The notes under the pieces: generated by a model
Databases searched by the model: none
What the model was told of the DNA's origin: nothing
What the model saw: the letters and a program-made list of their open reading frames with translations, nothing else
Made by a program: the position numbers and the translations under genes
Shown: piece after piece, positions 1,272 to 58,494 of the stretch
Layout: every line of letters starts with the position of its first letter
How positions within the stretch are numbered: position 1 is the stretch's first letter
DNA from: Planctomycetaceae bacterium
GTDB lineage: Bacteria > Planctomycetota > UBA8742 > UBA2392 > JABWBM01
Direction: 5' to 3'
Assembly: GCA_013360495.1 (NCBI GenBank)
Contig: JABWBM010000011.1
Location: 42-64,041 of the forward strand
DNA length: 64,000 nucleotides

Positions 1272-4049
1272 TTGTCATCGCGGATGGAGCCGCCCGCCAT
1301 GTCCGCATCCTTCCGCGTCAAACTTCTCTACCTCGCCGCCGGGTTCGGCATCGTGTTATTGCTTCTGCTTGGCCGGCTTTACACCATGCAGGTGGTGAAC
1401 GCCGCGAGCTACCGCAACAAGGCCGAGGGTACAACCTATCGTCATGAACTGCTCTTCCCGCCGCGCGCTCCGATTGTCGATCTTCATGGCCGCGTGATCG
1501 CCTCGAACGAATCGGTGTGGGATTGCTCCATCGATCTGTATGAAATGACGCGGCAGGAGGCGTTGCTGGCTCGCGCGCGCCGCTCGCCCGAGAGTTACCC
1601 GCCGCTTGAGGAGGTGCTTGCCTACTATCAAGCGGCGATGGCGATCAAGGAGTCGCAGGACGTCTCCACGCCTCGCAGCGCGCGCAGGTTCTTTGCCCGC
1701 TGGCAACTCCGGCAGCATCCCGTCGCGCAACACGATTTCGCGCAGATGACGGCGCAGCTTGCGGGCATTCTTGGCGTCGACGAGACGGCGTTACGCGCAC
1801 AGTTCGCGTTGGTGAATGACGAAGTTGACACCATAGCCGCCACGGTGGGGGACTGGCGTTCGGCGTCACGCGGTGCGATTCAAAACGCCTACAACGAAGC
1901 GCGCACAGCGTTGCGCGATCCCGAGTATTGGGAGCGGATTCGTCGGTTTCCAAAATCCATTATGCTCGAACCGCTGCTGGTGCGGCGGCTCGAACTCTCG
2001 AAGCAACGTTCGGACATCATCGAAGCCCTCGCCGACAACATCGACGACCACCCGGAGCTTGCTCTCGACCTCTTGATGAACGCTTCGACGGCATTTGAAA
2101 CGAAATACACGGAAGCCAAAGCAAAGTTTGAACAGTTCAACGAAAGCGACGAAGGGCTGGAGGCCCAGCTTCTCCGCGAGGATGAAACATTCTGGTCGGG
2201 CATGTGCCGCGACGCGGGTGTCTGGCTTGCCATGGCCGAGAAGCCAGATCAGCTCCACGAAGACCTTGAGCGGCGACTCGAGCAGGATGACGAACGATCC
2301 ACGATCGAAAATCGCTTGCTCCGTCTGCGCGAGAAGACGCTTGTTCCCTACATCGATGCTTACCAGTCCCGCTGGATTCACTACCTGACGCCGGGCGTGG
2401 ACGGACAGCCGCGCTTGAGCGGCAATCCATTGCGCCTTGCGCGCAAGGTTGACCGCATGGTTGTCGAGGCGCTCGCGTGCCACGACGAAGAACTGCCCGG
2501 CGTGCGTTGCGAGTCCCGCCCCGAACGCCTCTATGGTGAGTCGCATCTTTTTGCCCATGTGCTCGGCGGCTTGACCCAGCCTGACGAAGAGCGTCTACGG
2601 GAAATATTCGCCACGGGTCAGGCAGGCGTGAATCTTGGCGACATGATCGAACGCTGGTTCGACGGCGACCTCGAACATTTTCAGGACGCGTTTCGCGGCA
2701 GCCTTGCGCGGCAGATGGTGGGGGCCGCCGGTATCGAGCGTATGTACGACCTCGGCCTCGCGGGCAGTCCCGGCGCGCGCGTGGTCTATGCCGACGCACG
2801 AGGCGACGTGCGCGAAGTGACCTTCGAGCGCGATCCATTGGCCGCTGAGGCGTTGCGGCTCACGCTCGACATCGACTTGCAACGCTTTGCCATGGAGCGC
2901 ATTGCGGCGTGGGAGCCGAAGCTGAAGCAAGCAGCAGTGGACGGGCGGCCTCAGAAGGAAACATGGAAAACCGTCGGCAAAGACCAATGGAGTCTGCGCG
3001 GCGCGTTCGTGATGATCGATGTGAAGACCGGCGCGGTGCTGGCGCTCGTTAACTTCCCGAGCTACGACCCCGAACTGTTGCGCGCGCCGACGCCGGAAGG
3101 GGAGGCATACCGGCAGCGCGTCCTTCGCGGCGACGACGATTTACCGAAGAGCCAGTATTGGCTTAAACGCGCGCCGATGCTCAATCGTGCCGTCAGTGGC
3201 CGCTATGCACCGGGATCGACATTCAAGATTCTCACCGCCATCTCCATGCTCGAGCAGGGCGTGATCAATGCGACCAGTGAGTTCGACGAGGGGACAGGGG
3301 CGCAAGTTTTGGTGGGGGATAAGAAGACTTTTAAGTTGCGCACATCCCACGGCGCGGGCTTCGACCTCGACATCATCGACGCCATCGCCCGCAGCTCCAA
3401 CGGCTTCTTTTGGCACTTTTCCGAATACATGCCGGGCAACTCGCCCTATGAACGTTATGCCGGGACATTGCTGCCTTGGGCGCATGTCTTCGGTTTCGAT
3501 CATGCGCCGGGCATTGATCTTCCCTCGCAGACCTCCGGCCATCTTCCCGCGCCGACGCCGCGCGAGGTTCCGGGGGGCGGCGAACTTGCCCAGTTGTGCA
3601 TCGGCCAATACCGCAACCTTGCGAGTCCTTTGCAAGTAGCGCGCTTCATGGCCGCCGTGGCAAGCAAGGGGCGCCTAATGACGCCGCGCTTGGCCGCCGA
3701 TGGAAAGACTGATGGTGTGTACGTCAAGGTCAGCGACGAAACATGGCGGCTGGTGCACGAGGGTATGAGGCAATGCGTGTTCGATAGGGATGGAACGGCC
3801 CATAGCAGGGGGCCTCTTTGCCAAGAGCTCAAAGTTGCTGGAAAGACAGGAACCTCTCAAAACGGAAAGTTCATGGCCGCCGATGGGAATCTCCACGACA
3901 TTCCCGACCATGCATGGTTTGCGGGATTTGCGCCCTATGACAAGCCGGAGGTCGCGTTCGTGATGCTGGCGGAGTACAGTGGGTTGTGGGGCGGCGACGT
4001 GGCCGACCTCGCGGCGGAGATTGTGAAGTACCATCTGGAACGCAAGTGA
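1272..4049 (+). CDS. penicillin-binding protein 2-family transpeptidase, extended to 925 aa
   Basis: N-terminal TM helix and SxxK active-site motif (GSTFKILTA) with a C-terminal transpeptidase fold. A ~300-aa charged helical insertion sits between the TM anchor and the catalytic module. Confidence 0.8.
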   Translation: MSSRMEPPAMSASFRVKLLYLAAGFGIVLLLLLGRLYTMQVVNAASYRNKAEGTTYRHELLFPPRAPIVDLHGRVIASNESVWDCSIDLYEMTRQEALLARARRSPESYPPLEEVLAYYQAAMAIKESQDVSTPRSARRFFARWQLRQHPVAQHDFAQMTAQLAGILGVDETALRAQFALVNDEVDTIAATVGDWRSASRGAIQNAYNEARTALRDPEYWERIRRFPKSIMLEPLLVRRLELSKQRSDIIEALADNIDDHPELALDLLMNASTAFETKYTEAKAKFEQFNESDEGLEAQLLREDETFWSGMCRDAGVWLAMAEKPDQLHEDLERRLEQDDERSTIENRLLRLREKTLVPYIDAYQSRWIHYLTPGVDGQPRLSGNPLRLARKVDRMVVEALACHDEELPGVRCESRPERLYGESHLFAHVLGGLTQPDEERLREIFATGQAGVNLGDMIERWFDGDLEHFQDAFRGSLARQMVGAAGIERMYDLGLAGSPGARVVYADARGDVREVTFERDPLAAEALRLTLDIDLQRFAMERIAAWEPKLKQAAVDGRPQKETWKTVGKDQWSLRGAFVMIDVKTGAVLALVNFPSYDPELLRAPTPEGEAYRQRVLRGDDDLPKSQYWLKRAPMLNRAVSGRYAPGSTFKILTAISMLEQGVINATSEFDEGTGAQVLVGDKKTFKLRTSHGAGFDLDIIDAIARSSNGFFWHFSEYMPGNSPYERYAGTLLPWAHVFGFDHAPGIDLPSQTSGHLPAPTPREVPGGGELAQLCIGQYRNLASPLQVARFMAAVASKGRLMTPRLAADGKTDGVYVKVSDETWRLVHEGMRQCVFDRDGTAHSRGPLCQELKVAGKTGTSQNGKFMAADGNLHDIPDHAWFAGFAPYDKPEVAFVMLAEYSGLWGGDVADLAAEIVKYHLERK

Positions 4050-7565: not shown

Positions 7566-7643
7566 GTCATGCCGACGAAAGTCGGCATCCAGCTACAATC
7601 AGATTTCTCGTCGCATCTGGATCCCCGCTTTCGCGGGGATGAC
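7566..7643. repeat. MITE-like element family A (forward hairpin, 24-nt spacer, reverse hairpin)
   Basis: gtcatgccgacgaaagtcggcatccag ... ctggatccccgctttcgcggggatgac. Confidence 0.85.
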
Positions 7644-7662
7644 GCCGCAGCAAGCTGCGGCG

Positions 7663-9039
7663 TCACTTACCGATGCAAAACTTGGCGAAGATGTGGTCGA
7701 GGACATCCGCCGAGGCTCCGTGGCCAAAGGCTTCGCGTATGGCGGAGAGCGCCGATCGGGCGAGGTCACTGACCACTTCGATGGGGGCGCCGCGATCCAA
7801 TTCCGAAACGGCTTCCTCCAGACGTGAGGCTGCCTCGGTAATCAGGGCTCCTTGGCGGGCGGATACAGCAGTAGTCTCCGGCGCGAGGGAGCGTTTGACG
7901 AGGGAAGTGATTCGGGACTTGAGCTCGGCGATGCCGTCGTTGGTGAGCGCGCTGACGGAGAGGGACGGATAGTCGCAGAATGGCTCTGGTAGGGGACTGG
8001 AGTTTGCGCACAGGTCGCGCTTGGTACGCACGATCAACGTACGATCATTTGTAAGATATGAGGCATTCCGGTGAAGGGGAGAATCAAAATGTAAGCAATC
8101 AAAGACTGGATTCCCGCCTTCGCGGGAATGACATGCCTTACTATCGATCACGAGTAACACAACATCGGCGCGATCCTGTTGTTCGTGGGTGGATTCAAGG
8201 GCGTGATTCTCGATCATATCGGCCGCCTGCTTCATGCCGGCGGTGTCCACGAGTTCCACGGCAATGCCGCCAAGATCGGCGGTTTCCAGCACGGCGTCGC
8301 GCGTGGTTCCGGCCTCATCGCTCACGATGGCACGCTCGCGCCCAAGGAGCGCATTGAAGAGCGTTGACTTTCCCGCGTTGGCCGGGCCGATGAGAACGAC
8401 CGACGGTTTCGCGTGGCCGGCGTGGCGCGGCGCTTCCGTGAACCGCCGCAGATGGTCAAGGGCCGCGCGCGCCATGTCCTTGAATCGGTCAAGCAATGCC
8501 TGTTCCGCCGCCTCCTCGTCAAAGTCAAAGCTCAGCTCGAACTGCGCGCACAGTGACTCAAGTTCGCTGACCAAGCGCTGGCCTTCTCGGGAGAGCGCCC
8601 CGTCCAGTACCGCGGAAAACCTGCGGGCATCTTCCTTGCCGCTGCTCGACACCAGTGCCATCACCGCTTCGGCTTGCGAGAGGTCGAGCACTCCGTTGAG
8701 ATAAGCGCGTTTACTGAACTCGCCCGGATCGGCCATGCGCGCACCGGCCTTGCACAGCTCACGCAGCACGGCGTCCACCAGCAATGGCGAGCCCGACAGG
8801 TGAATCTCCACGCAGTCTTCGCCGGTGGCGGAGTGCGGCGCTGGGGATATCCAGAGTTGTGCAGGACAAGCGCCTGCGGAAAGTTTGAGCCGTGTGCGAA
8901 CGATAGAACGCTTGGATTCAATAGATGCATCGGGGCAGAGCTTTCGCACGATCCCGATTGCCTCGTCGCCGCTCACGCGAATGGCCGCGCGGACTGCGGG
9001 AACAAGCGGCGTGGCTGGCGCGAAGATGGTTTCGGTCAC
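7663..9039 (-). CDS. mnmE: tRNA modification GTPase MnmE
   Basis: G1 motif GPANAGKSTLFNAL, G2/G3 DEAGTTRD..DTAG, and the C-terminal CIGK tetrapeptide. The gene overlaps yidC by 4 bp as in the classical arrangement. It carries an in-frame repeat insertion (next feature). Confidence 0.9.
   Translation of the reverse strand: MTETIFAPATPLVPAVRAAIRVSGDEAIGIVRKLCPDASIESKRSIVRTRLKLSAGACPAQLWISPAPHSATGEDCVEIHLSGSPLLVDAVLRELCKAGARMADPGEFSKRAYLNGVLDLSQAEAVMALVSSSGKEDARRFSAVLDGALSREGQRLVSELESLCAQFELSFDFDEEAAEQALLDRFKDMARAALDHLRRFTEAPRHAGHAKPSVVLIGPANAGKSTLFNALLGRERAIVSDEAGTTRDAVLETADLGGIAVELVDTAGMKQAADMIENHALESTHEQQDRADVVLLVIDSKACHSREGGNPVFDCLHFDSPLHRNASYLTNDRTLIVRTKRDLCANSSPLPEPFCDYPSLSVSALTNDGIAELKSRITSLVKRSLAPETTAVSARQGALITEAASRLEEAVSELDRGAPIEVVSDLARSALSAIREAFGHGASADVLDHIFAKFCIGK
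8062..8132. repeat. MITE family A copy embedded in-frame inside mnmE
   Basis: ggcattccggtgaaggggagaatc (degenerate unit) plus a 20-nt spacer plus ctggattcccgccttcgcgggaatgac. It is translated as CHSREGGNPVFDCLHFDSPLHRNASYLTND between the G3 and G4 (TKRD) motifs. Confidence 0.8.
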
Positions 9040-18808: not shown

Positions 18809-19351
18809 ATGGCCCATGACGATGCCAGCCTCGTAAAGCGCACCCTCGGGGGCGACACAGCGGCATACCGCGAGTTGGTGGAGCGTTACCAGCGCGCGGT
18901 GTTCTCCTGCGCGTATCAACTGCTCGGCTCCCGCCATGACGCCGAGGAGGCGGCCCAGGAAGCCTTTGTGCAGGCTTTCGAAAAGCTCGACCGGCTGCGC
19001 GAGCCGCGCTATTTCTTCTCGTGGGTATGGCGCATTACGAGCACGGTGGCGTTGAAGTGGCGGCTCAAGCAGCGCCGCTCAGAGCTTGGCCTCGAAGCGG
19101 ATATGTTCGCGCGCGAACGTGAACAAGCGCCCGTGGAGCGGGAAGAGCAAAGACTCACTCTCTTGCAAGCTTTGGCGCAGTTGCCCGAAGAGCAACGCGA
19201 AGCCATCACGTTGCGCTTTTGGGAGGAGATGGATTACGCGCAAATGGGCAAGCTGCTCGGTATCAGCCATGACGCGCTCTACCAGCGTGTGTCGCGGGGA
19301 TTGAAGCAGCTTCGGGAACTCCTTGGGCAGGATTTCGTTGTACGAGAGTGA
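18809..19351 (+). CDS. RNA polymerase ECF-type sigma factor
   Basis: AEEAAQEAFVQAFEKLDRL, WVWRITSTVALKWRLKQ and region-4 HTH (EMDYAQMGKLLGISHDALYQRVSRGLKQLRE). Confidence 0.8.
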   Translation: MAHDDASLVKRTLGGDTAAYRELVERYQRAVFSCAYQLLGSRHDAEEAAQEAFVQAFEKLDRLREPRYFFSWVWRITSTVALKWRLKQRRSELGLEADMFAREREQAPVEREEQRLTLLQALAQLPEEQREAITLRFWEEMDYAQMGKLLGISHDALYQRVSRGLKQLRELLGQDFVVRE

Positions 19352-19589
19352 AGATTCACCACAGAGGCACGGAGAACACGGAGGAATACATTTCACGCAA
19401 AGAGAAAAAGATGGGAGAAAAGTGCGATCACGAAAGCGCGAAAGCTCGAAACATGATGGGGATTTTCAAATCTTGAGTTCGTGATTTTTCCATTTCGTGT
19501 TTTCGTGATCTCTTCTCCCTTCCGACTTCGCGCCTTTGCGTGCCAATCCTATTCTTTCTCTGCGTTCTCCGTGCCTCTGTGGTGAATCT
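19352..19589. repeat. MITE-like element family B (~240 bp nested palindrome)
   Basis: Termini attcaccacagaggcacggagaacac ... gttctccgtgcctctgtggtgaat. It fills the whole sigma to downstream-gene intergenic gap. Confidence 0.75.
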
Positions 19590-19598
19590 TGCAAAACC

Positions 19599-20576
19599 AT
19601 GAAGAAGACGCCGCCATTCGAGAAGGAACACGCAACGCTCGTTGAAGCGCTGCGCCGCACGAGGCTGAAGGGCCCCGACGAGCGCTTCGCCGACGGCGTG
19701 ATTGACCGCATCGACGCCGAGCACGGCGTGCGGAGCGAGCTTGAGTCATCCCAGCCCGAAGGCGGCAACGTCGCCAGCCGCGTAATGGCGCGAATTCGCG
19801 GTGATGGCACAAGCCGCGCCCCTTCGCGCAAGCATGGACGCCGGGCGCCGCGGTGGTTCCTGCCCCTCGGTGGAGCTATCGCGGCTGGGCTCGCCATCGC
19901 CGTACTATTCACACCGATGCGGGACTGGTTGAGAGATAGTGGCGCTCAAGTCGTACCCAATGACCCGGCGCCGCCCTCAGCTTTGCAACCCGCTTCTCCG
20001 ATGCCGTCGGGACAGATCCGTTCCGTGCGCGACTTTGGCGGCGAGCGCTGCTATGTCATCGACGCCGGACTTGTCGAAGGACTGCGCGTGGGCGATGTGC
20101 TCGCATGGGAGCGCGACGGGCAGCGGGCGGGCCAGCTTCGTGTCATCGGTGTGAGCGCCTACGCCGCGATTACGAGGCAGGAAGGGCGCTCGGAACGTGA
20201 GCCTCAGCCTCGCGACCACGTTGAACCCCTCTTCCTGACGGATGTCATGCGCCGCGCCGCCAAGGAGATCGAATCTGGCAGTCAGGCCCGTGGCGCGTTC
20301 TACGGTCTCGGCATCATGCTCGCGCGGGGAACCGACGGTATCGTCGTCATGGACGTTGTGCGCGAGCTTTGGCGGCCAGAGGATTCCGCGCCCGAGCCGT
20401 CGCGGGCAAGCAGGCTTGGCCTCGAAGTGGGGGACGTGATCCGCGCGGCGCTTGGCGAGCGGGTCGCGAGCGAAGCGGATCTCGAACGGATTCTTCTGCG
20501 CGTCGATCCTGACGCGACGGTGCTGACGATGACCGTGCTTCGTGACGGGCATGAACTCGCGCTCACCGAACGGTAG
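19599..20576 (+). CDS. membrane protein with C-terminal PDZ-like domain (putative anti-sigma/regulatory partner of the upstream ECF sigma)
   Basis: Single TM (WFLPLGGAIAAGLAIAVLF) and a PDZ-like GLEVGDVIRAALGERV...VLTMTVLRDGHELALTE. Chosen over the arginine-rich antisense ORF 19977..20741. Confidence 0.45.
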   Translation: MKKTPPFEKEHATLVEALRRTRLKGPDERFADGVIDRIDAEHGVRSELESSQPEGGNVASRVMARIRGDGTSRAPSRKHGRRAPRWFLPLGGAIAAGLAIAVLFTPMRDWLRDSGAQVVPNDPAPPSALQPASPMPSGQIRSVRDFGGERCYVIDAGLVEGLRVGDVLAWERDGQRAGQLRVIGVSAYAAITRQEGRSEREPQPRDHVEPLFLTDVMRRAAKEIESGSQARGAFYGLGIMLARGTDGIVVMDVVRELWRPEDSAPEPSRASRLGLEVGDVIRAALGERVASEADLERILLRVDPDATVLTMTVLRDGHELALTER

Positions 20577-20612
20577 AGAGTCTTTCACCGCAGACGCGGG
20601 GAACGCAACGGG

Positions 20613-20667
20613 ATTCAAAAGCTGATTTCGAAGGCGATGAGCCAGCCGCGCATGGTGAAACCGAGGC
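20613..20667. repeat. 55-bp direct repeat copy 1 (duplicate of the 3' end of OMP gene 21347..22141)
   Basis: 51/55 identity with 21347..21401. It encodes ...GFTMRGWLIAFEISF* as a gene remnant. Confidence 0.8.
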
Positions 20668-20679
20668 GGCTTACTTTGA

Positions 20680-21036
20680 TCATCGCACGCGAATCCTTTG
20701 CGGTTCGACAATAACCAGCGAGCCGTCGAGCCGGCGGACAATGTCGCGGTGCTTCAACAGGTCTCGAAGCATTGCCAGCACTTTTGCTCGATTGGCATGA
20801 ACCGGGCATACGAGGATAACGATTCCTGCATACTTCTTCGGAGGATACTGGCGAATGTCGGCGAAATCCCAATCGCGCGTCACAAGACACAACGAATGCC
20901 GTTTGGCGTAAGCGGCGATCATCTCATCGGGTGCGGTTCCCAAACCAATGTCGCGCACGTCAGCAGTTTCATGTTTTGCTCGCTGAAGAACCTCAGCTAC
21001 AGACCGAGGCAGGCTGGCGTCGATCAGGAATTTCAT
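20680..21036 (-). CDS. DUF5615-type PIN-like putative toxin
   Basis: MKFLIDASLPRSVAEVLQRAKHETADVRDIGLGTAPDEMIAAYA...LVTRDWDFADI matches the DUF5615 pattern (LxDENL...RDxGLxxAxDxEI...LVTxDxDF). Confidence 0.65.
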   Translation of the reverse strand: MKFLIDASLPRSVAEVLQRAKHETADVRDIGLGTAPDEMIAAYAKRHSLCLVTRDWDFADIRQYPPKKYAGIVILVCPVHANRAKVLAMLRDLLKHRDIVRRLDGSLVIVEPQRIRVR

Positions 21037-21039
21037 GGG

Positions 21040-21285
21040 CTAACCGGTGGAGCGGCTGCCGGGGAAGTGCTGCTCACCGGAAACAAGCTCGCTGGCGTAT
21101 GCGACAGCAGCGCGAATGTCCGCTTCGGTAATGTCATAATCCTTGGCGATAGCCGCAATCGAGTCGCCGCCCGCGAGGGCGTCGAGAACGACATGCACAA
21201 GCACGCGCGTACCTTTGATCACCGGCTTGCCGTGGCAAACGGCGGGATCGATGCTGATGCGTTTGTGGAGGGTGCTGGTAGCCAT
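21040..21285 (-). CDS. DUF433-domain putative antitoxin
   Basis: ISIDPAVCHGKPVIKGTRVLVHVVLDALAGGDSIAAIAKDYDITEADIRAAVAYASELV matches the DUF433 consensus. 3-bp gap to the DUF5615 gene. Confidence 0.65.
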   Translation of the reverse strand: MATSTLHKRISIDPAVCHGKPVIKGTRVLVHVVLDALAGGDSIAAIAKDYDITEADIRAAVAYASELVSGEQHFPGSRSTG

Positions 21286-21346
21286 TGGCTTTCCTCGCCG
21301 TGCAGTATATCACGCTTGTGTACGTCCGGCCATTGGCGCAGCCAAT

Positions 21347-22141
21347 TCAAAAGCTGATTTCAAAGCCGATCAGCCAGCCGCGCATGGTGAATCCGAGGCC
21401 GTGTTGGTAGCGAAAGCCGACGGAGATGGCGACGGGCGAGATTGGCTTTGGGATATTGATCGAGGCGTCGAACTCGTCGAAACGGTCGCCATTGGAATAT
21501 ACCTCTTGCGCGGCGCACGCGGAAAGTTCCGCCAAGACCGCTCCAAATCTTCCGTGGGTTTCGATTCGAAAGCCTTCATCTCTATCGGCGTTGCCGACAT
21601 CGTGAACCTCTGTGAATCCTCCAGCAACGCCGAAATTGAAGAACAATACGGAAGCTCGCCTCAATACAGGCGTGAGTGTTCCGGAATGCAGTGCTACTCC
21701 CCAGTAGTCCAAACCGAAGGTCAGGACATGATGGTGGCCTTCTTTGCTGGACGACGCGTAGGAGAACCGGTCTTGGACATAGCGAAGCGTTGGCGATATT
21801 CCCTCGCCGCTCGCCCAATCAACGCCGGTCACGAATGGAAGTTGTAACGCGGCTGACCATGTGCGGTAGCGCGCATTGTTTTCGGCTTGGTTGTCTCCAC
21901 TTGCGTAGCGGAAATCGAATCCTGGAAAGAGAATATCGCCCGATGAAACGTAGGTTGTTTCAAAGAGAGAGGGAGTCTCGTCCGGGTTGGGCGTTTCCTC
22001 TGACACTGGCTGATCCGCTGACAGAGGCGACGCCGCAATTATCGCAATCAACGCGATGATCCACGCATGAAACGTGCTTTGCATAGGGACTCCTTGATGG
22101 CACCAAGCCCGCCAAGGGCTCGCCATCAATGAATCCCACAA
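21347..22141 (-). CDS. outer-membrane beta-barrel protein (hypothetical)
   Basis: Signal peptide (IIALIAIIAASPLSA), alternating amphipathic strands, and C-terminal GWLIGFEISF with terminal Phe. Confidence 0.5.
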   Translation of the reverse strand: MWDSLMASPWRAWCHQGVPMQSTFHAWIIALIAIIAASPLSADQPVSEETPNPDETPSLFETTYVSSGDILFPGFDFRYASGDNQAENNARYRTWSAALQLPFVTGVDWASGEGISPTLRYVQDRFSYASSSKEGHHHVLTFGLDYWGVALHSGTLTPVLRRASVLFFNFGVAGGFTEVHDVGNADRDEGFRIETHGRFGAVLAELSACAAQEVYSNGDRFDEFDASINIPKPISPVAISVGFRYQHGLGFTMRGWLIGFEISF

Positions 22142-22177
22142 GATTGAAAAAGGCGCCGGAGAAAAGGGGCTAATTAT

Positions 22178-22642
22178 TCATTTTGGCTCTAAGAGAATGA
22201 CATTTCCTGTACCTTCAGAAGTGGTCACAATCGAATCATATTTGACCGATGACCAAGGAATTTCGAATCCTGATGCGTGAGGTGGTCGGACGGACAACAC
22301 GCTTTCATCTACATGGATTGTGAGAAGAGCGATCTCAACGTCTATTTCGTCCAATGTTAAGCGCCCCTTCCATCCCTTCATGCCTTCGAACAAAATGGGC
22401 TTTCCTTTGAACGTTAACTCAGTTCCATTCTCTACGGTTCTTACCGAGTTTACGGCCTTGTCTTCATAGATCGACCAAGTGACCGCAGCGGCCTGTGTGG
22501 TGGTTTCGCGAACATCAACCATGGCACGCATACTATTGCACGCGCTGCACCAGACAGTGGCAGCAATTGCAAGCAGTGCTATTCGTGCATGAATACTCAT
22601 GATGTTGTTAGCGCTATCTCTCTTCGTGCCTTGGTGGTTCAA
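22178..22642 (-). CDS. small secreted/lipoprotein (hypothetical), low-GC (~45%)
   Basis: Signal peptide with Cys (IALLAIAATVWCSACNS). Composition is clearly AT-richer than the flanks. Confidence 0.4.
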   Translation of the reverse strand: MNHQGTKRDSANNIMSIHARIALLAIAATVWCSACNSMRAMVDVRETTTQAAAVTWSIYEDKAVNSVRTVENGTELTFKGKPILFEGMKGWKGRLTLDEIDVEIALLTIHVDESVLSVRPPHASGFEIPWSSVKYDSIVTTSEGTGNVILLEPK

Positions 22643-22645
22643 AAT

Positions 22646-22753
22646 TCTGGATTCCGGCTTTTACCGGAATGACACGTTGCATTGTTCTGTATTTCTCTGC
22701 GTCCTTTGCGCCTTTGCGGTGAAAAAACTGGATTCCCGCCTGCGCGGGAATGA
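22646..22753. repeat. composite repeat: two MITE-A hairpin units in direct orientation flanking a MITE-B arm fragment
   Basis: ctggattccggcttttaccggaatgac ... tttctctgcgtcctttgcgcctttgcggtgaaaaaa ... ctggattcccgcctgcgcgggaatgac. Confidence 0.75.
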
Positions 22754-22755
22754 CA

Positions 22756-24801
22756 TCAATACGCCAGCACCTTCTTCACCGCGTCGAAGACGATCTTTTC
22801 GTTTGGCTGCATGGCTGCTTCGAGGGTCTTGTTGAACGGGACGGGGATATATTTCTGGCCAACGCGTTCCACGGGCGCGTCGAGGTACTCGAAGCACTCG
22901 TGCATGATCTGCGCCACGATCTCACCGCCGAAGCCGGAGAACACCTTGTCTTCATGAACGACGAGCGCGCGGCTGGTCTTGCAGGCGGATTTGACGATGG
23001 CGCCGGTGTCGAGTGGGTTGAGGCTGCGCACGTCCAAAACCTCGACGGAAATGTTTTCCTTCTCCGCCATTTCGGCCGCCTTCATGGACCACATCACGCC
23101 GCTGCCGTAGGTGATGATGGAGATGTCGTTGCCTTCCTTGCGCAGGCGCGCCTTGCCGAAGGGAACGACGAAGTCTTCCGCGACTTTGCAGCGCGTGAAG
23201 GGATGGTTGTACATCGCCTTCGGTTCGAGATAGAGAATCGCGCCCTGAGAACGCATGGCCGTACGCATCAGTCCGGCTGCGTCGTCGGCGTAGCACGGCG
23301 TCACCACGCGCAGGCCGGGGATGCTGGTGAAAATCGCTTCGAGGTTCTGGCTATGGTAGAGGCCGCCGCCAATGTTACCGCCTGAAGCGAGGCGCAGGAT
23401 CACGTTGGGCGAGAATTGGCCATAGGTGCGCCAGTATTCGTGGGAAAGTTCGATGATCTGGTCCATAGCGGGCCAGACGTAATCGGCGAATTCCGCGGCT
23501 TCCACGACGACGCGAATCTTCTGGTCGAAGCGCGAGAAACCATTGGCGGTGCCGACGATATAGTTCTCGGCGATCGGGGCGTTGAACACGCGCTTGTTGC
23601 CGAACTCGTGCTGCATACCGTCGGAGACCTTGAAGATGCCTTCCTTCTCGCCGCTCGCCATGTCCTGCCCCCACATGAAGGTGTCGGGGTTGCGGCGGAA
23701 CTCGGTTTTGAGCGCCTGATTGATGCCTTGACGCAGCGTGCAGACCTCGCCGGTATCAGAGGCTGGAATGCCCTCCGGGTTTTCTGTGCATGGATAGGCC
23801 GGCGGCAGCAGGTGATCCTCGACGGTGGAGATGTCGGCGATGGGCGCCGCGCTGCCGTATTCGACTGCGGCGTTGAATTCCTTCTCAGCGTCGGCTTCGA
23901 TTTCCTTGAGTTGAGATTCGGTGGCCAGCTTTTCTTTGAGAAGGAAATTGCGGAAGATGGGGAGCGGGTCGCGCTTCTTGGCTTCCTCAAGCTCCTTTTC
24001 GCTGCGGTAGAGTGTGTGGTTATCGGAGTTCGAATGCGGGCCGATGCGCGCGCACATGGCGTAGACGATGGCGCAGCCTTCGCCTGCGCTGACGAAATCC
24101 ACGGCGGCCTGCATGGAACGGAAGCAGGCGAAGACGTCGCGCCCGTCGCAAATCTCGATGTGCAGGTTGCCGATGCCGCGGTAGTTCTCGGCGAGGATTT
24201 CGTTGGCGCTTTGTTCGCGCTTGGGCACGCCGATGCCGTAGCCATTGTCCTGCATGACGAAGACGACGGGGAGTTTCTCGCGCGAGCTGCCATTAATCGC
24301 CTCGAAGACGTAGCCCTCGGAACTTGAGGACTCGCCAAAGCTCGCGTAGGCGATGGCGTCGCTCTTGTAATACTTGGCGGCGCGGGCAACTCCGGCGGCG
24401 TGCTGCGCGTGGTTGGATACACAGCTCGATACGTTTTGGATATTGATCGCGGGTTTAGCGAAGTGGTTCGACATGTGGCGGCCCTTGCCGGCCACGTCTT
24501 CCTCGCGCGACAATCCGTTCAGGATGATTTCCTTCGCCGTGAGGCCCGCAGCCAACGACGTGACCAGGTCGCGGTAATATGGGAAGAGATAGTCCTTGCC
24601 TTGGCGGAAGGTGCAGCCGAGCGCCACCTGAATGGCGTCGTGGCCCGCGCATGGGGCGTGGTAGGACCAGCCCATGTTTTTGCGCAGGAAGTTCGGCGCC
24701 TCCTCGTCAAGCAGGCGGCCGAGGTACATCAGGCGGTAGACCTGCTCATGGCCGGGGTAACGTTCGCTGGGGACTTCAAGCGTCGCGGTTTTCTGTTTCA
24801 T
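22756..24801 (-). CDS. 2-oxoacid dehydrogenase E1 component, fused alpha (TPP-binding) and beta (transketolase-like) subunits
   Basis: TPP motif GESSSSEGYVFEAINGS...VFVMQDNGYGI in the N-terminal half and E1-beta pyrimidine/transketolase C-terminal domains in the second half. ATG at 24801, because the longer ORF runs into a repeat. Confidence 0.8.
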   Translation of the reverse strand: MKQKTATLEVPSERYPGHEQVYRLMYLGRLLDEEAPNFLRKNMGWSYHAPCAGHDAIQVALGCTFRQGKDYLFPYYRDLVTSLAAGLTAKEIILNGLSREEDVAGKGRHMSNHFAKPAINIQNVSSCVSNHAQHAAGVARAAKYYKSDAIAYASFGESSSSEGYVFEAINGSSREKLPVVFVMQDNGYGIGVPKREQSANEILAENYRGIGNLHIEICDGRDVFACFRSMQAAVDFVSAGEGCAIVYAMCARIGPHSNSDNHTLYRSEKELEEAKKRDPLPIFRNFLLKEKLATESQLKEIEADAEKEFNAAVEYGSAAPIADISTVEDHLLPPAYPCTENPEGIPASDTGEVCTLRQGINQALKTEFRRNPDTFMWGQDMASGEKEGIFKVSDGMQHEFGNKRVFNAPIAENYIVGTANGFSRFDQKIRVVVEAAEFADYVWPAMDQIIELSHEYWRTYGQFSPNVILRLASGGNIGGGLYHSQNLEAIFTSIPGLRVVTPCYADDAAGLMRTAMRSQGAILYLEPKAMYNHPFTRCKVAEDFVVPFGKARLRKEGNDISIITYGSGVMWSMKAAEMAEKENISVEVLDVRSLNPLDTGAIVKSACKTSRALVVHEDKVFSGFGGEIVAQIMHECFEYLDAPVERVGQKYIPVPFNKTLEAAMQPNEKIVFDAVKKVLAY

Positions 24802-24837
24802 AGTGTTGCACCGTAAACCGTGTTGCACCGTCAACCA

Positions 24838-24874
24838 AAGACGTAGCGTCACGCGCCCTCGCGTGACGGTCTTC
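24838..24874. repeat. MITE family C single hairpin unit
   Basis: aagacgtagcgtcacgcgccctcgcgtgacggtcttc. Confidence 0.7.
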
Positions 24875-25008
24875 TCCAGCACAGCTGTTTGCCACGACGC
24901 CATGCAGGGGCGCATGGCGCTACGGCGATATGCTGTGAGTCAGCCGAGCAGTTTACTTGCGCAGCGCGTTTTGGGGAATTGAAAACGGCGGGTATGAGAC
25001 GTGAAAAA

Positions 25009-25017
25009 TGCTATAAT
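25009..25017 (+). promoter_or_regulatory. extended -10 promoter element (TGcTATAAT) upstream of the NTase-fold gene
   Basis: atgctataat, then GGAGG RBS at 25027-25031, then ATG at 25038. Confidence 0.35.
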
Positions 25018-25037
25018 AGCTTGTTGGAGGCATTATC

Positions 25038-25628
25038 ATGGCCTTGCCCCATTTGGCTCTACCCAAGTCACGGCACGAGCGCGAAACCATGGCTGGAGAC
25101 ATCGCCGAGGACGTTGCGCGGCTTGCCGCCACGAGAGGCGTCAAGCTGGTGTTGATCGGCGCCCATGCCGCGAATCTGTATACGGGGAAGCCGCGCTCGA
25201 GCAAGGACGTGGATTTTATCGCAGACAAACCTGAGGCGCTCGGCGAACTTGAGGGCCTGAAACGCGAACTTCACGACGACGTCGTTCGCTACGTGGATGA
25301 AAACGGTCACGAAGTCATCGACTTACTCAGGCCTCATCCGCCATTGTTCAAGCATGTCCTGAGTACAACAACGCAACACGGACCATTTTTTGTTCCGAGT
25401 CTCGAGATGATGCTCGGCTTGAAATTCTTCGCCATGGTCAATCCGCGCAGAGAATGGGAAGACCGGAATCAGGACGCCCTCGATTTCACGCGCATCGTGC
25501 GTCATAACAAGACCAGCCTTGACCGGAAGGCGGTCGCTGCCATTGGCGAGCTGGTCTATGCGGGCGGCGCTGATGAAATGCTTGGCTATGTCGACGACGC
25601 CCTTGCCGGTCGGCAGATCATTCTCTAG
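25038..25628 (+). CDS. nucleotidyltransferase-fold protein (minimal NTase, AbiEii/MNT-like), orphan
   Basis: hG[GS]...DhD signature (LIGAHAANLYTGKPRSSKDVDFI). No adjacent HEPN or partner ORF. Confidence 0.4.
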   Translation: MALPHLALPKSRHERETMAGDIAEDVARLAATRGVKLVLIGAHAANLYTGKPRSSKDVDFIADKPEALGELEGLKRELHDDVVRYVDENGHEVIDLLRPHPPLFKHVLSTTTQHGPFFVPSLEMMLGLKFFAMVNPRREWEDRNQDALDFTRIVRHNKTSLDRKAVAAIGELVYAGGADEMLGYVDDALAGRQIIL

Positions 25629-25732
25629 AGCTGCCGAAACAGGGGCGCGGCCGCTCTCATTCCGAAATTCCGTTGCCACCCGCCCGCGCCAAACGAGAAT
25701 AGGCGCACAATTTCAAACGGGAGTGGGAACAT

Positions 25733-26764
25733 ATGAGCAGCAAGACCATCGAAGTCACGGAACTCATGGGCGACGGCATCGGGCCGGAGCTCTCGCAGGC
25801 GATCCATCAGGTGGCCGAGGCACTGCCCCTCAAGTTCAAGTTCGAGCAGATCGACTGGTCGGTGGAGAATCGCGAGGCCCACGGCGACAAGATCGTCGAG
25901 GAGGGCTGCCGCTCGATGCTGCGCACGAAACTCGCGCTCAAGTATCCCACCGAGACGCGAACCAAAAGCCCCAACGCGCTGCTGCGTCGCTTTTGTAATT
26001 TCAGTGTGATCTACCGCCCGGCGATTTCCATCAAGGGCATATCGTCGAACTTCAAGCCCGACGTGAACCTGCATATCGTACGCGTGGCGACGGGCGGCAC
26101 CTACGACGATCCAGGCCGTATGATCGGCGACGACGGCGCGGTCTCCCTGCGAATCGTCGAGCGCAAGCCCTGCGAGCACGCCGCGACCTTTGCCTTTGAA
26201 CTCGCGAAGAAGAAGGGCTGGAAGATGACCTCCAGTTCCAAGCACACCATCCAGCGCGGCACCGACGGCCTGTTCGAATCCATCGTCAACGAGACTCACA
26301 AGAAGTATGCGGACGTGCCTCACGACATCGAACTCTTTGATGCATTGCTGGCCAAGATCATCATCAAGCCGCAGAACTACCGCGTGGTGCTCGTGCTCAA
26401 CGAGTACGGCGACTTCCTTTCCGATATGGCGTCGGGCCTCGTGGGCAGCATCGGCACCGGGGCGAGCGGCAACTACGGCTTCGATAAGGAGCACAAGATC
26501 AACGTCGCCATGTTCGACCCGTCGGGCGGCACAGCCCCCGACATCGCGGGCAAAAATCTCGTCAACCCGGCAGCAATCTTCCTCGCGATGGGCATGTTGC
26601 TCGACCACATCGATCGCTATGACCTCGGCCATGCGCTGCGGCTTTCGCTGCTTGGCTGCATCGAGCGCGGCGAGTGTACCGGAGACATCGGCGGCAAGAT
26701 GAGTTGTACGCAGTTCACGGATGCGGTGATCAAACACCTGCCGGAGCATTTGCCGAAGAAGTAA
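25733..26764 (+). CDS. isocitrate/isopropylmalate dehydrogenase-family NAD(P)-dependent dehydrogenase
   Basis: NEYGDFLSDMASGLVGSIGTGASGNYG and GGTAPDIAGKNLVNPAAIFLAMGMLLDH motifs. Confidence 0.8.
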   Translation: MSSKTIEVTELMGDGIGPELSQAIHQVAEALPLKFKFEQIDWSVENREAHGDKIVEEGCRSMLRTKLALKYPTETRTKSPNALLRRFCNFSVIYRPAISIKGISSNFKPDVNLHIVRVATGGTYDDPGRMIGDDGAVSLRIVERKPCEHAATFAFELAKKKGWKMTSSSKHTIQRGTDGLFESIVNETHKKYADVPHDIELFDALLAKIIIKPQNYRVVLVLNEYGDFLSDMASGLVGSIGTGASGNYGFDKEHKINVAMFDPSGGTAPDIAGKNLVNPAAIFLAMGMLLDHIDRYDLGHALRLSLLGCIERGECTGDIGGKMSCTQFTDAVIKHLPEHLPKK

Positions 26765-49506: not shown

Positions 49507-49558
49507 CCCGGATTCCCGCGAGTTATGCAAACCTTGGGTGCAAATTCGATGTTCAGCC

Positions 49559-49626
49559 GTCATGCCCGCGTAGGCGGGCATCCAGTCTTCTCTTTGTATC
49601 TGGATTCCGGCTTGCGCCGGAATGAC
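49559..49626. repeat. MITE-like element family A (paired hairpins, 14-nt spacer)
   Basis: gtcatgcccgcgtaggcgggcatccag ... ctggattccggcttgcgccggaatgac. Confidence 0.85.
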
Positions 49627-49705
49627 GATACCAATCATCCATGGTATCAAACGAGGCAGACGCGCGGACGTTCGATGAAAGATGCTTTGAGATCCCGCCG
49701 GTGGG

Positions 49706-50950
49706 TTACTTCTTTTTCTTTCCGCTATCGGCGGGTTGCTTCTTGGGTGGTAGCTTGAAGAACTTGGTACGCTCGGCGCCATTACGCTCGAAGACGACGG
49801 TGAATTCGGTCACTCCCTCGTTCCGTAAATTCATGACGAGATTCTTGGCTGCTTCGATAGTGGTTACCGGAGTTCCATTGACAGACTTGAGAATATCTCC
49901 GCCACGCGCACCTGCGCGGTAGGCGAGACTATCCGAAGGAAGGGAGTCATTGAATTTAAGGCCAACGTCGTTGCCTTCCATATCAGTTTGGCGGGAGACA
50001 TAACTGGTCATGGCTTCCAACACTCCCGCGTTCATGTCTTCCCAGCCGAGCTGGACGTTATCGCCGACAACCTTGGTCGTTCTGTTCTCTTCCGACATGT
50101 CCCACGGCGATTCGTCGGCGGCTGCATCGACAGGCGGTATCTGCTTGGAAGCGTCATCTATTTTCTTGTCAGGGCCGGTAAGCCTACTCGGGCTCGAGCC
50201 GCCTATTGTCTTTTTGACGCCGATAAACGCATCCTTGTAATCCTCATAAGGGACTTCGAGCGTGATCTCGTAGCGGCCATTGACGGGTTGCAGCTTCTTG
50301 TCGAGCTTCTCGATCTTCTCCGGTGGCGTTGTTTTGATCGCCTCCGTCAGTTCCTTGGTAGTGACGGCGAGGATGATGTAGTTGCCGTTAATTTCGGTGA
50401 TGATGGCGTCCATGGTGTTGCTGATCTGCGTGCCGTAGTCGGGGTTATCGTCCTTGGGAAATTTCGCCTGAATATTCGTTCCTTTTTCGACGGCCATCTC
50501 CATGCCGTCGAATCCCTTCCCCTTCAGTTCGAGCGCAACCCAACTCCTCAAGCCTTCGACCGACGCTAAAACGTCGGGCATCTTGACGACGCGGATGACG
50601 GAGAATTTGCTCGCGACTTCCTTCTCGATGTTGTCGCGGATTTTCTTGAAGTCGACGCCTTCGTCGATGGGTTTCGTGGTGCCGCCTCCGCTGATTACGG
50701 TTTCAATCTTTGACGCAGGTCCGGGCATGATGTTGACCGGCTTGAACGAGATCGACGTATTCTTGTTCTTGAGGCTTTCCCACGTTTCAGGTGGGTCGAT
50801 CTTCATGATGTTTTTGTCGCGAAGGCGGGCGTCGAGCGATTCGCGCTCGCTCTTCTGGTCGCTATAAAAATCGAATGCCAAGTAGCCGCCCCCCGCGAGC
50901 AGCGCGAGGTTCGTCACCCAAAGGACTGTTGGCAGCGGCGATTTTCTCAT
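49706..50950 (-). CDS. PDZ-domain membrane protein (GspC-like architecture), low-GC
   Basis: N-terminal TM and C-terminal PDZ (GARGGDILKSVNGTPVTTIEAAKNLV...EFTVVFERNG). ~48% GC. Confidence 0.45.
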   Translation of the reverse strand: MRKSPLPTVLWVTNLALLAGGGYLAFDFYSDQKSERESLDARLRDKNIMKIDPPETWESLKNKNTSISFKPVNIMPGPASKIETVISGGGTTKPIDEGVDFKKIRDNIEKEVASKFSVIRVVKMPDVLASVEGLRSWVALELKGKGFDGMEMAVEKGTNIQAKFPKDDNPDYGTQISNTMDAIITEINGNYIILAVTTKELTEAIKTTPPEKIEKLDKKLQPVNGRYEITLEVPYEDYKDAFIGVKKTIGGSSPSRLTGPDKKIDDASKQIPPVDAAADESPWDMSEENRTTKVVGDNVQLGWEDMNAGVLEAMTSYVSRQTDMEGNDVGLKFNDSLPSDSLAYRAGARGGDILKSVNGTPVTTIEAAKNLVMNLRNEGVTEFTVVFERNGAERTKFFKLPPKKQPADSGKKKK

Positions 50951-50974
50951 GCGACTATCCTAACTCTCCCCGTC

Positions 50975-51061
50975 GTCATGCCGGCGTAAGCCGGCATCCA
51001 GTCTTTTTTCTCTACGTCTCTTTCTTTTCAACGTCTGAATTCCGGCTTGCGCCGGAATGAC
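50975..51061. repeat. MITE-like element family A (paired hairpins)
   Basis: gtcatgccggcgtaagccggcatccag ... ctgaattccggcttgcgccggaatgac. Confidence 0.85.
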
Positions 51062-51108
51062 GCTCGTATCCCTTTAATACGCTCCAACGCTGTATTCGTT
51101 TGGAAAAT

Positions 51109-54473: not shown

Positions 54474-54553
54474 GTCATGCCGACGAAAGTCGGCATCCAG
54501 GACCCATGAAAAGACAAAAAGTTAAGATGGATTCCGGCTTTCGCCGGAATGAC
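54474..54553. repeat. MITE-like element family A (paired hairpins)
   Basis: gtcatgccgacgaaagtcggcatccag ... atggattccggctttcgccggaatgac. Confidence 0.85.
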
Positions 54554-54597
54554 GTTATAAACGCCAACCATTCATGGGGGCAGTAAGAGCCCTCGTA

Positions 54598-58331: not shown

Positions 58332-58410
58332 GTCATTCCGGCGAAAGCCGGAATCCAGTCTTATGGACATTTTTTGGTCGCTTCTGGATACCGGCTTTCG
58401 CCGGTATGAC
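58332..58410. repeat. MITE-like element family A (paired hairpins)
   Basis: gtcattccggcgaaagccggaatccag ... ctggataccggctttcgccggtatgac. Confidence 0.85.
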
Positions 58411-58494
58411 GCCCTGTGGCGCGTGGGGTTCTTGGGAATGCAATACAACATAGGCCTTCGATCTTACGTTTGTCCGACCTTTGGCAAGCGGAAA

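Follow-up and report, generated by a model that had tools for sequence, protein, structure and literature searches.

A vapBC-like toxin-antitoxin operon between two copies of an outer-membrane protein gene end in a planctomycete: a candidate long-target-duplication insertion

A 64,000-nucleotide stretch of a metagenome-assembled Planctomycetaceae bacterium genome (GCA_013360495.1, contig JABWBM010000011.1; hereafter the window, with positions counted from its first letter) contains a compact operon resembling vapBC-type II toxin-antitoxin (TA) systems. The operon is enclosed by two direct copies of a 55-nt sequence, one being the 3' end of a gene for a predicted beta-barrel outer-membrane protein (OMP) and the other a displaced remnant of such a gene end. 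On balance, the arrangement appears to have resulted from an insertion with long target duplication, in which one crossover, either unequal or of the Campbell type, took place without an element-encoded recombinase. The movement of chromosomal TA loci outside recognisable mobile elements is poorly understood, and this locus gives an unusually clean footprint: a complete TA operon alone, an essential gene end kept intact by a 55-bp duplication, and a housekeeping region without a mobility gene.

A toxin-antitoxin operon behind a duplicated gene end

The two repeat copies lie on the (-) strand at 20613-20667 (copy 1) and 21345-21399 (copy 2), with a spacing of 732, and are identical at 51 of 55 positions (93%); a repeat search of the window thereby bears out the length and identity given in an earlier reading made from the letters alone (the sequence-only reading). 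That reading placed copy 2 at 21347-21401 and described the repeat as the last 14 codons of the gene. In register with copy 1, the correct span of copy 2 is 21345-21399, and its content is the last 16 sense codons, LGFTMRGWLIGFEISF, the stop codon (21347-21349) and 2 nt past the stop. Copy 2 is the end of the intact OMP gene, where it terminates the open reading frame (ORF) 21347-22084/22141, and its designation as the true 3' end of that gene stands. Copy 1 reads LGFTMRGWLIAFEISF followed by a stop codon and is a displaced OMP 3' end: a tblastn search of the window with the OMP returned the gene itself and the 16-codon remnant and nothing else, which excludes the possibility that copy 1 is a piece of a longer OMP paralogue and upholds its description as a gene remnant. 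Homology to the OMP ceases precisely where copy 1 has its inner edge, at a distance of 12 nt from the toxin stop codon. When copy 2 was used as a query with up to three mismatches, it matched itself alone in the window, 0 matches being expected from shuffles; REP-like hairpin units aside, the 55-nt repeat is the sole long (at least 30 nt) local direct repeat there. The fact that the repeat brackets the TA operon alone, is unique in the window and is not expected by chance supports an insertion.

That the repeat reflects chance similarity or faulty assembly is extremely improbable. The only point in favour of this is that the source is a metagenome-assembled genome, and the shuffles argue against chance. 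An assembly artefact is ruled out because independent contigs carry the identical structure: it is 100% identical in all 19 contigs of the strain that were retrieved, with Logan contigs from at least 11 sequencing runs, and the contigs of two further NCBI assemblies likewise match it. Moreover, the longest exact run common to both copies does not exceed 20 nt, so that collapse of k-mers is no concern.

The 677-bp segment between the repeats (20668-21344, (-) strand, GC 0.575), taken as the inserted cassette, consists of a leader, an antitoxin gene, a toxin gene and a tail. The 59-nt leader (21286-21344), upstream of the antitoxin ATG, holds a GAGGAAA ribosome-binding site, and a 6-bp hairpin, ATTGGC-NNN-GCCAAT (21332-21346), spans the boundary between repeat and cassette; a consensus scan of the leader called no sigma-70 promoter. 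The antitoxin gene (21040-21285) encodes 81 aa of the DUF433 family (COG2442; E=8.9e-23, 80.3 bits against a cut-off of 23.6), with a weak match to the Mycobacterium tuberculosis VapBC49 structure 5AF3 (E=0.0018). The toxin gene (20680-21036) starts 3 nt past the antitoxin stop on the same strand and encodes 118 aa that match both DUF5615 (E=3.5e-22, 78.8 bits, cut-off 23.8) and PIN_10 (E=1.4e-7, 31.9 bits, cut-off 26.2). The toxin has every one of the acidic active-site residues D6, D26, D29, D37, D55 and D57, whose conservation across 105 homologues is 92-100%; among all residues conserved in at least 92% of these homologues, the toxin keeps all but K21. A 12-nt tail (20668-20679) leads from the toxin stop to copy 1. 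Read-through from the toxin into the remnant was considered and rejected, the frames being different and a second stop following the toxin stop. The family matches and the segment limits agree with the earlier statement that a DUF433 antitoxin and a DUF5615 PIN-like toxin lie exactly between the repeats, and the cargo is accordingly described as an intact-looking vapBC-like type II TA operon whose activity is predicted from the protein families.

No Pfam match was obtained for the opposite-strand ORFs or for the 91-aa ORF that holds the remnant, and the toxin has no sequence relative in the PDB. Strain variants aside, the nearest toxin relatives are only 53-56% identical, and the pair looks acquired for this reason. 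Near-identical copies of the TA pair at other loci were not found, the next relatives being at most 56% identical, and a search of plasmid and viral contig collections recovered no toxin relatives.

The target gene (21347-22084, (-) strand; source genome in NCBI: Planctomycetaceae bacterium, locus tag HUU29_01680) encodes 245 aa from the called ATG, or 264 aa if translation starts at the TTG at 22141. It is a near-orphan: the 245-aa protein has no Pfam match, and only five distant relatives (28-35% identity) were found among 1.8 billion cluster representatives, the C-terminal strand being the best-conserved part of the family. An AlphaFold model built from this small alignment (pLDDT 78, pTM 0.70) shows a signal-peptide helix, a disordered linker and approximately 12 long antiparallel strands. 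Its top Foldseek matches in the PDB are all outer-membrane barrels (FapF, autotransporter beta-domains, Pla/OmpT, OmpG and porins), with probabilities of about 1 and TM-scores of only 0.3-0.38. The model and its fold matches thus support, at the level of the class, the earlier assignment of the copy 2 gene to beta-barrel OMPs. Barrel assembly usually recognises its substrates by a C-terminal strand with a final Phe; since this strand is needed for assembly, only an insertion that rebuilds the gene end would be tolerated.

A Pfam scan of about 50 long ORFs in the window revealed housekeeping functions, namely a penicillin-binding protein (PBP), MnmE, YidC, an RND pump, an extracytoplasmic function (ECF) sigma factor, a 2-oxoacid dehydrogenase E1, epimerases, RibF, enolase, Obg, PPDK and RuvC, and no integrase, transposase or reverse transcriptase. 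As the 677-bp segment is itself too small to hold an integrase, the sequence-only reading was right that none remains. The G+C content at third codon positions (GC3) is 0.82 in the RND pump gene, 0.81 in the E1 dehydrogenase gene and 0.74 in both the sigma-factor gene and a gene encoding a PDZ-domain protein next to copy 1, compared with 0.72 in the antitoxin gene, 0.61 in the OMP gene, 0.57 in the toxin gene and 0.49 in a 154-aa gene upstream of the OMP gene. The TA pair is therefore compositionally atypical, as are the OMP and 154-aa genes.

A variant strain and the search for relatives

The sole informative divergent relative of the locus is a 901-bp contig from another sequencing run (L014), which carries the insert. 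In the OMP body, 22 of 101 nt differ between this contig and the window (22%), with nine codons that have only synonymous changes and seven that are replaced; the nine synonymous-only codons imply that the alleles have truly diverged and that selection on loops is not the whole cause. The next 426 nt, covering copy 2, the leader, the antitoxin gene and the start of the toxin gene, are identical, as are the last 313 nt, which extend through copy 1 and 6 nt beyond. Between these two identical parts, seven changes fall within a 61-nt patch of the toxin gene (L014:472-828 compared with window 20920-20980), giving A20V, T24A, A25V, M39T and one synonymous change; the patch could reflect gene conversion or selection on the toxin surface. 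The contrast between divergent and identical parts is strong (Fisher p=2e-17), and the switch from one to the other lies at most 7 nt from the inner edge of copy 2. The unit formed by copy 2, the TA pair and copy 1 is decoupled from the OMP allele. Judging from the alignment, either two lineages recently exchanged the unit through recombination with the conserved 3' end as its anchor, or the OMP body was swapped for a divergent allele by a crossover in the same conserved end. Independent integration into two diverged alleles is unsupported because both repeat copies are identical in both lineages.

The four mismatches between the repeat copies can be viewed in the same light. On the coding strand, three of the codon differences between the copies are synonymous (GGA/GGT, CTG/CTC and TTT/TTC) and one is a Gly/Ala difference (GGC/GCC). 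Synonymous changes make up 21.5% of the possible single-base changes in these codons, and the probability of at least three synonymous changes out of four under neutral decay is 0.033; the remnant has neither an indel nor a premature stop. With three synonymous changes over 16 codons, the copies have diverged to nearly the same degree as the OMP alleles of the window and L014. The simplest reading is that the copies derive from two functional OMP alleles, those of a donor and a recipient, and that the mismatches may pre-date the event. If the copies have such a two-allele origin, the mismatches say nothing about the age of the event. The earlier claim that they mark it as not recent thus loses its basis, given the three synonymous changes in four, the allele-level divergence, and the identity of both copies in L014 despite a 22% difference in the OMP body. 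A diversity-generating retroelement with template and variable repeats was also considered and rejected: the differences between copy 1 and copy 2 are T/A, C/G, C/G and C/T, copy 1 has no adenine at these positions, and the window ORFs include no reverse transcriptase.

In sequence terms, an empty site would read as the OMP body ending in …CGCTACCAACACG followed by one 55-mer and CCCGTTGCGTTCCCCGCGTCTGCGGTGAAAG, and the junction of a circular excised form as …CGCGTGCGATGATCAAAGTAAGCC followed by the 55-mer and TGGCTGCGCCAATGGCCGGACG (with the joins …AAGTAAGCC|GCCTCGG…TTTTGAAT|TGGCTGCGCC…). Exact-protein look-ups with the toxin, the antitoxin, the 245-aa OMP and the 154-aa protein returned same-strain contigs only, all with the insert, and the look-up with the 264-aa OMP ORF returned no record. 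Homologue searches with the OMP and the PDZ protein likewise yielded same-strain proteins only (the query OMP and, from a second assembly, a truncated form of the PDZ protein). Among JGI metagenome contigs, a pattern of the OMP C-terminus retrieved one distant family member (L015), on a contig that ends at the stop codon. A partial variant of the sigma factor, belonging to the same 90% cluster, pointed to a contig of 100% identity, but this extends in the wrong direction.

Flanking repeats were also looked for around five homologues of the TA pair, from four loci (L019, L021 a and b, L026 and L029), and only the first pair of L021 (L021a; GCA_037024495.1) has one. This is a 152-nt direct repeat (2555-2706 and 3826-3977), 91% identical, which brackets the first DUF433/DUF5615 pair and duplicates the start of the neighbouring DUF433 gene, namely its ribosome-binding site and 46 codons. 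The locus (JBAIGM010000044.1, 1900-4450) is a TA array composed of HEPN, Phd/PIN, a truncated DUF433 fragment and two DUF433/DUF5615 pairs, and its 456-nt spacer contains two CGACCCCTCCGGGGTCG hairpins. The promoters of the two neighbouring pairs are homologous, and the case is ambiguous for that reason: unequal crossing-over in an array of paralogues would explain the bracket equally well.

Origin of the arrangement

In the explanation that we favour, with a cautious preference, DNA arriving from a related lineage whose OMP allele was different would have carried the vapBC-like operon (677 bp, with its own leader) together with a homologous 55-bp segment. A single crossover between that segment and the conserved 3' end of the resident OMP gene would have duplicated the last 55 bp of the gene and placed the TA operon directly behind it. 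The product would be one intact OMP frame, including the C-terminal beta-strand that ends in Phe, with a second set of 16 terminal codons stranded beyond the toxin gene. The joining would have been performed by host recombination functions or by a recombinase acting in trans, and the TA pair would then promote its own retention through post-segregational killing. From the mismatch pattern together with the L014 mosaic, it seems that recombination between otherwise divergent alleles can be anchored in a conserved gene end.

Several observations weigh against this explanation. No empty site was found in any related sequence, which we attribute to the lineage being almost unsampled, and the insertion is consequently inferred, not demonstrated; every contig with the OMP gene also has the TA pair. 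Scans of species genomes with the PDZ protein and with a degenerate C-terminal peptide pattern, the latter covering 185,579 species genomes, detected no relatives of the locus. The evidence comes from one documented locus, the second candidate (L021) being ambiguous. Both repeat copies of L014 equal those of the window, so that resident and incoming copies are indistinguishable, and replacement of the OMP body with a divergent allele explains the L014 mosaic equally well. A stretch of 55 bp is short for RecA-dependent recombination. Finally, if selection filters mutations in the functional copy, the probability of the observed synonymous bias rises to approximately 0.13 by our own calculation, and the bias loses its significance.

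The sequence-only reading had compared the locus with islands that integrate site-specifically into tRNA genes. Applied here, this would mean a minimal non-autonomous cassette with a 55-bp attP that mimics the OMP 3' end, integrated by a tyrosine or serine recombinase supplied in trans. Direct repeats of att-like length, the exact rebuilding of the target gene and the compact cassette with its 59-nt leader and 12-nt tail all fit such a mechanism, as does the L014 identity that begins at most 7 nt from the inner edge of copy 2, which is expected if copy 2 moves with the element. Against this, no recombinase was found in the cassette or among the ORFs scanned in the window, the window has no second match to the 55-mer, and recurrent use of the site was not seen: the peptide pattern is absent from the 185,579 species genomes, the JGI metagenomes gave only one unrelated family member, and near-identical TA copies elsewhere are lacking, with the next relatives at 56% identity or less. 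Folds at the junctions are insignificant compared with shuffles (z -0.5 to -1.2), and no integron core site (GTTRRRY/RYYYAAC) was seen there. The identity of copy 1 in L014 would also not be predicted by independent integration into an allele diverged by 22%. A mechanism like that of tRNA-targeting islands is possible but unsupported, and we consider dedicated site-specific integration unlikely.

Two further explanations dispense with homologous incoming DNA or with an incoming unit altogether. Repair of a staggered break, or end-joining, behind the OMP gene could have captured a linear TA fragment with fill-in synthesis, leaving a perfect 55-bp duplication that diverged later; the cassette ends and flanks, which share no homology beyond the repeat, are compatible with this. 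However, the 7% divergence would then imply an old event, yet the remnant lacks an indel or stop and has three synonymous changes and one conservative change (P=0.033), and lineages that differ by 22% in the OMP body share both copies and most of the cassette in identical form. This explanation is quite doubtful. Alternatively, the TA pair may already have been resident, and a local tandem duplication or a second OMP paralogue, followed by deletion, would have produced the repeat without insertion of a mobile unit. The lack of an observed empty site agrees with this, the atypical, orphan-like block of the 154-aa gene, OMP gene and TA pair could have arrived together, and the 152-nt bracket of the homologous TA pair at L021 is explicable by unequal crossing-over in an array of paralogues. 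Nevertheless, at least two events would be needed, with boundaries coinciding exactly with the ends of the TA operon; no further OMP sequence lies beside copy 1; and the mismatches resemble those between two functional alleles rather than those of a decaying duplicate. Such a local rearrangement is, in our judgement, about as improbable as fill-in repair.

A bolder proposal is that the 732-bp unit, consisting of the 55-bp mimic of the OMP end and the TA operon, constitutes a minimal integrase-less mobile cassette that homes to the sequence encoding the OMP C-terminal strand. Such a cassette would rebuild the OMP gene on entry and move between lineages with very different OMP alleles, as the L014 mosaic hints, being mobilised in trans or by host recombination. 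We regard this as a speculative and rather improbable extension. If it were true, type II TA pairs could spread by a long-target-duplication route like that of restriction-modification (RM) systems, independently of cleavage by a restriction enzyme.

Surroundings of the locus and known systems

Beyond copy 1, a 36-nt spacer (20577-20612) reaches to the stop codon of the convergent PDZ gene (19599-20576, (+) strand), which lies 38 nt from the remnant stop; under an insertion this would be the original intergenic spacer between the OMP and PDZ genes. It contains a degenerate unit resembling repetitive extragenic palindromic (REP) sequences (20583-20612). This unit, in the 38-nt spacer beside repeat copy 1, is a degenerate copy of a second repeat family (TTCACCRCAGAGGC…GGAGAAC…) that occurs in addition at 22692-22724 and at 19351-19590. 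At the latter position, which falls between the sigma-factor gene and the PDZ gene, it forms an inverted repeat whose 36-nt arms are 168 nt apart. A known RNA element was rejected, Rfam giving only spurious sub-threshold miRNA matches on the REP-like palindrome 19353-19588. The REP-like hairpin unit proper, TGGATTCC(C/G)GC…GC(G/C)GGAATGAC, has eight intergenic copies in the window (7618-7647, 8107-8136, 22648-22677, 22729-22758, 49601-49630, 51036-51065, 54528-54557 and 58385-58414), and many independent Logan contigs end at 22724, inside a REP-like cluster. Two composite clusters in direct orientation (49558-49630 and 50974-51065), each a 41-nt unit plus a 30-nt hairpin unit and about 1.42 kb apart, enclose most of a 414-aa PDZ-domain ORF (49706-50950).

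On the other side of the locus, the 154-aa orphan gene (22178-22642, (-) strand) lies upstream of the OMP gene on the same strand and is its probable operon partner; on a contig with an OMP homologue (P0118), the gene upstream stops where the OMP gene begins. The two genes (21347-22642, (-) strand) are near-orphans whose GC3 values of 0.61 and 0.49 contrast with 0.74-0.82 in the neighbourhood, and the pair may itself be an acquired accessory operon. Some 4 kb from the TA locus, a 196-aa ORF (25038-25628, (+) strand) weakly matches part of the profile for the nucleotidyltransferase toxin AbiEii of type IV TA systems (E=1.3e-5, covering only positions 12-62 of 238) and may be what is left of a further addiction or defence module. 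A contig of a second assembly (GCA_026647195.1, JAPKHD010000073.1; L011/L002) is 99.95% identical to window positions 19739-26000. Past 19739 it continues into genes for ribosomal proteins L9 and S18 that are absent from the window, with the PDZ gene cut to 191 aa; the junction is either a chimeric join or a real rearrangement.

Among known systems, integrative islands that target and restore the 3' ends of tRNA or protein genes, and their integrase-less derivatives, resemble the locus in that their repeats include the 3' end of a gene, the target remains intact and a partial copy stands at the far end. Derivatives flanked by att sites that lack an integrase are known, for example cis-mobilizable elements in streptococci. 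The unit described here differs in having no integrase, excisionase or transfer gene in or near it, in its size of only 0.7 kb, and in showing no sign of recurrent site use or of the 55-mer serving as a recombinase site. TA cassettes of integrons are similarly compact (about 0.7 kb), contain a TA pair alone with its own expression signals and are possibly mobilised in trans. An integron gene cassette was nevertheless rejected, since the junction folds are no better than shuffles and no attC-like imperfect palindrome, core site (GTTRRRY/RYYYAAC at the junctions), integrase or array is present; the flanks here are a duplicated gene end.

As a TA system, the operon is closest to the VapBC-type pairs of PIN and COG2442 (DUF433) proteins, such as Synechocystis vapBC10 (PMC3834315) and M. 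tuberculosis VapBC49 (PDB 5AF3). Such pairs are an experimentally validated TA type, with toxicity, neutralisation and ClpXP-dependent activation reported for vapBC10 (PMC3834315). The locus shares with them the antitoxin-then-toxin order, a DUF433 antitoxin, a PIN-like toxin with conserved acidic residues, and small protein sizes (81 and 118 aa here). It is unlike them in that the toxin falls in the DUF5615/PIN_10 branch and that its activity is predicted only.

The closest known class, which the sequence-only reading did not name, is "insertion with long target duplication", known from RM units of every type (Nobusato et al. 2000, Gene 259:99; Furuta, Abe & Kobayashi 2010, PMC2853133; reviewed in PMC3874152). 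The criteria of Furuta et al. comprise flanking direct repeats of more than 30 bp, an insert of less than 20 kb, no mobility gene, a repeat that is not dispersed through the genome, an RM system as cargo, and a single copy of the repeat at the empty site in a relative. The RM inserts are smaller than 20 kb, lack a mobility gene and have direct repeats of 46-423 bp, often with slight imperfections (for example, 44/46); some repeats overlap the 3' end of a neighbouring gene, and the inserts are often compositionally atypical (PMC2853133). The present locus is similar in being an addiction-type unit without a mobility gene, with repeats above 30 bp (55 nt) and an insert far below 20 kb (677 bp). 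In contrast to the RM cases, the duplication is almost wholly coding and rebuilds a functional gene end, and the class-defining empty site in a relative is lacking, so that the assignment rests on anatomy. Full-text literature searches turned up no account of such a footprint around type II TA pairs, which is absence of evidence only. The value of the locus is limited by its being a single case and by the missing empty site. By analogy, this single locus suggests a footprint of a known type, that of RM units, around cargo of a new kind: in place of an RM system stands a type II TA pair whose toxin is PIN-like. RM insertion has been tentatively ascribed to DNA breakage by the restriction enzyme (PMC2853133), an explanation that does not obviously apply to this cargo, and a PIN-like TA pair with an RM-type footprint would speak for a more general mechanism of addiction modules, one that does not depend on the cargo.

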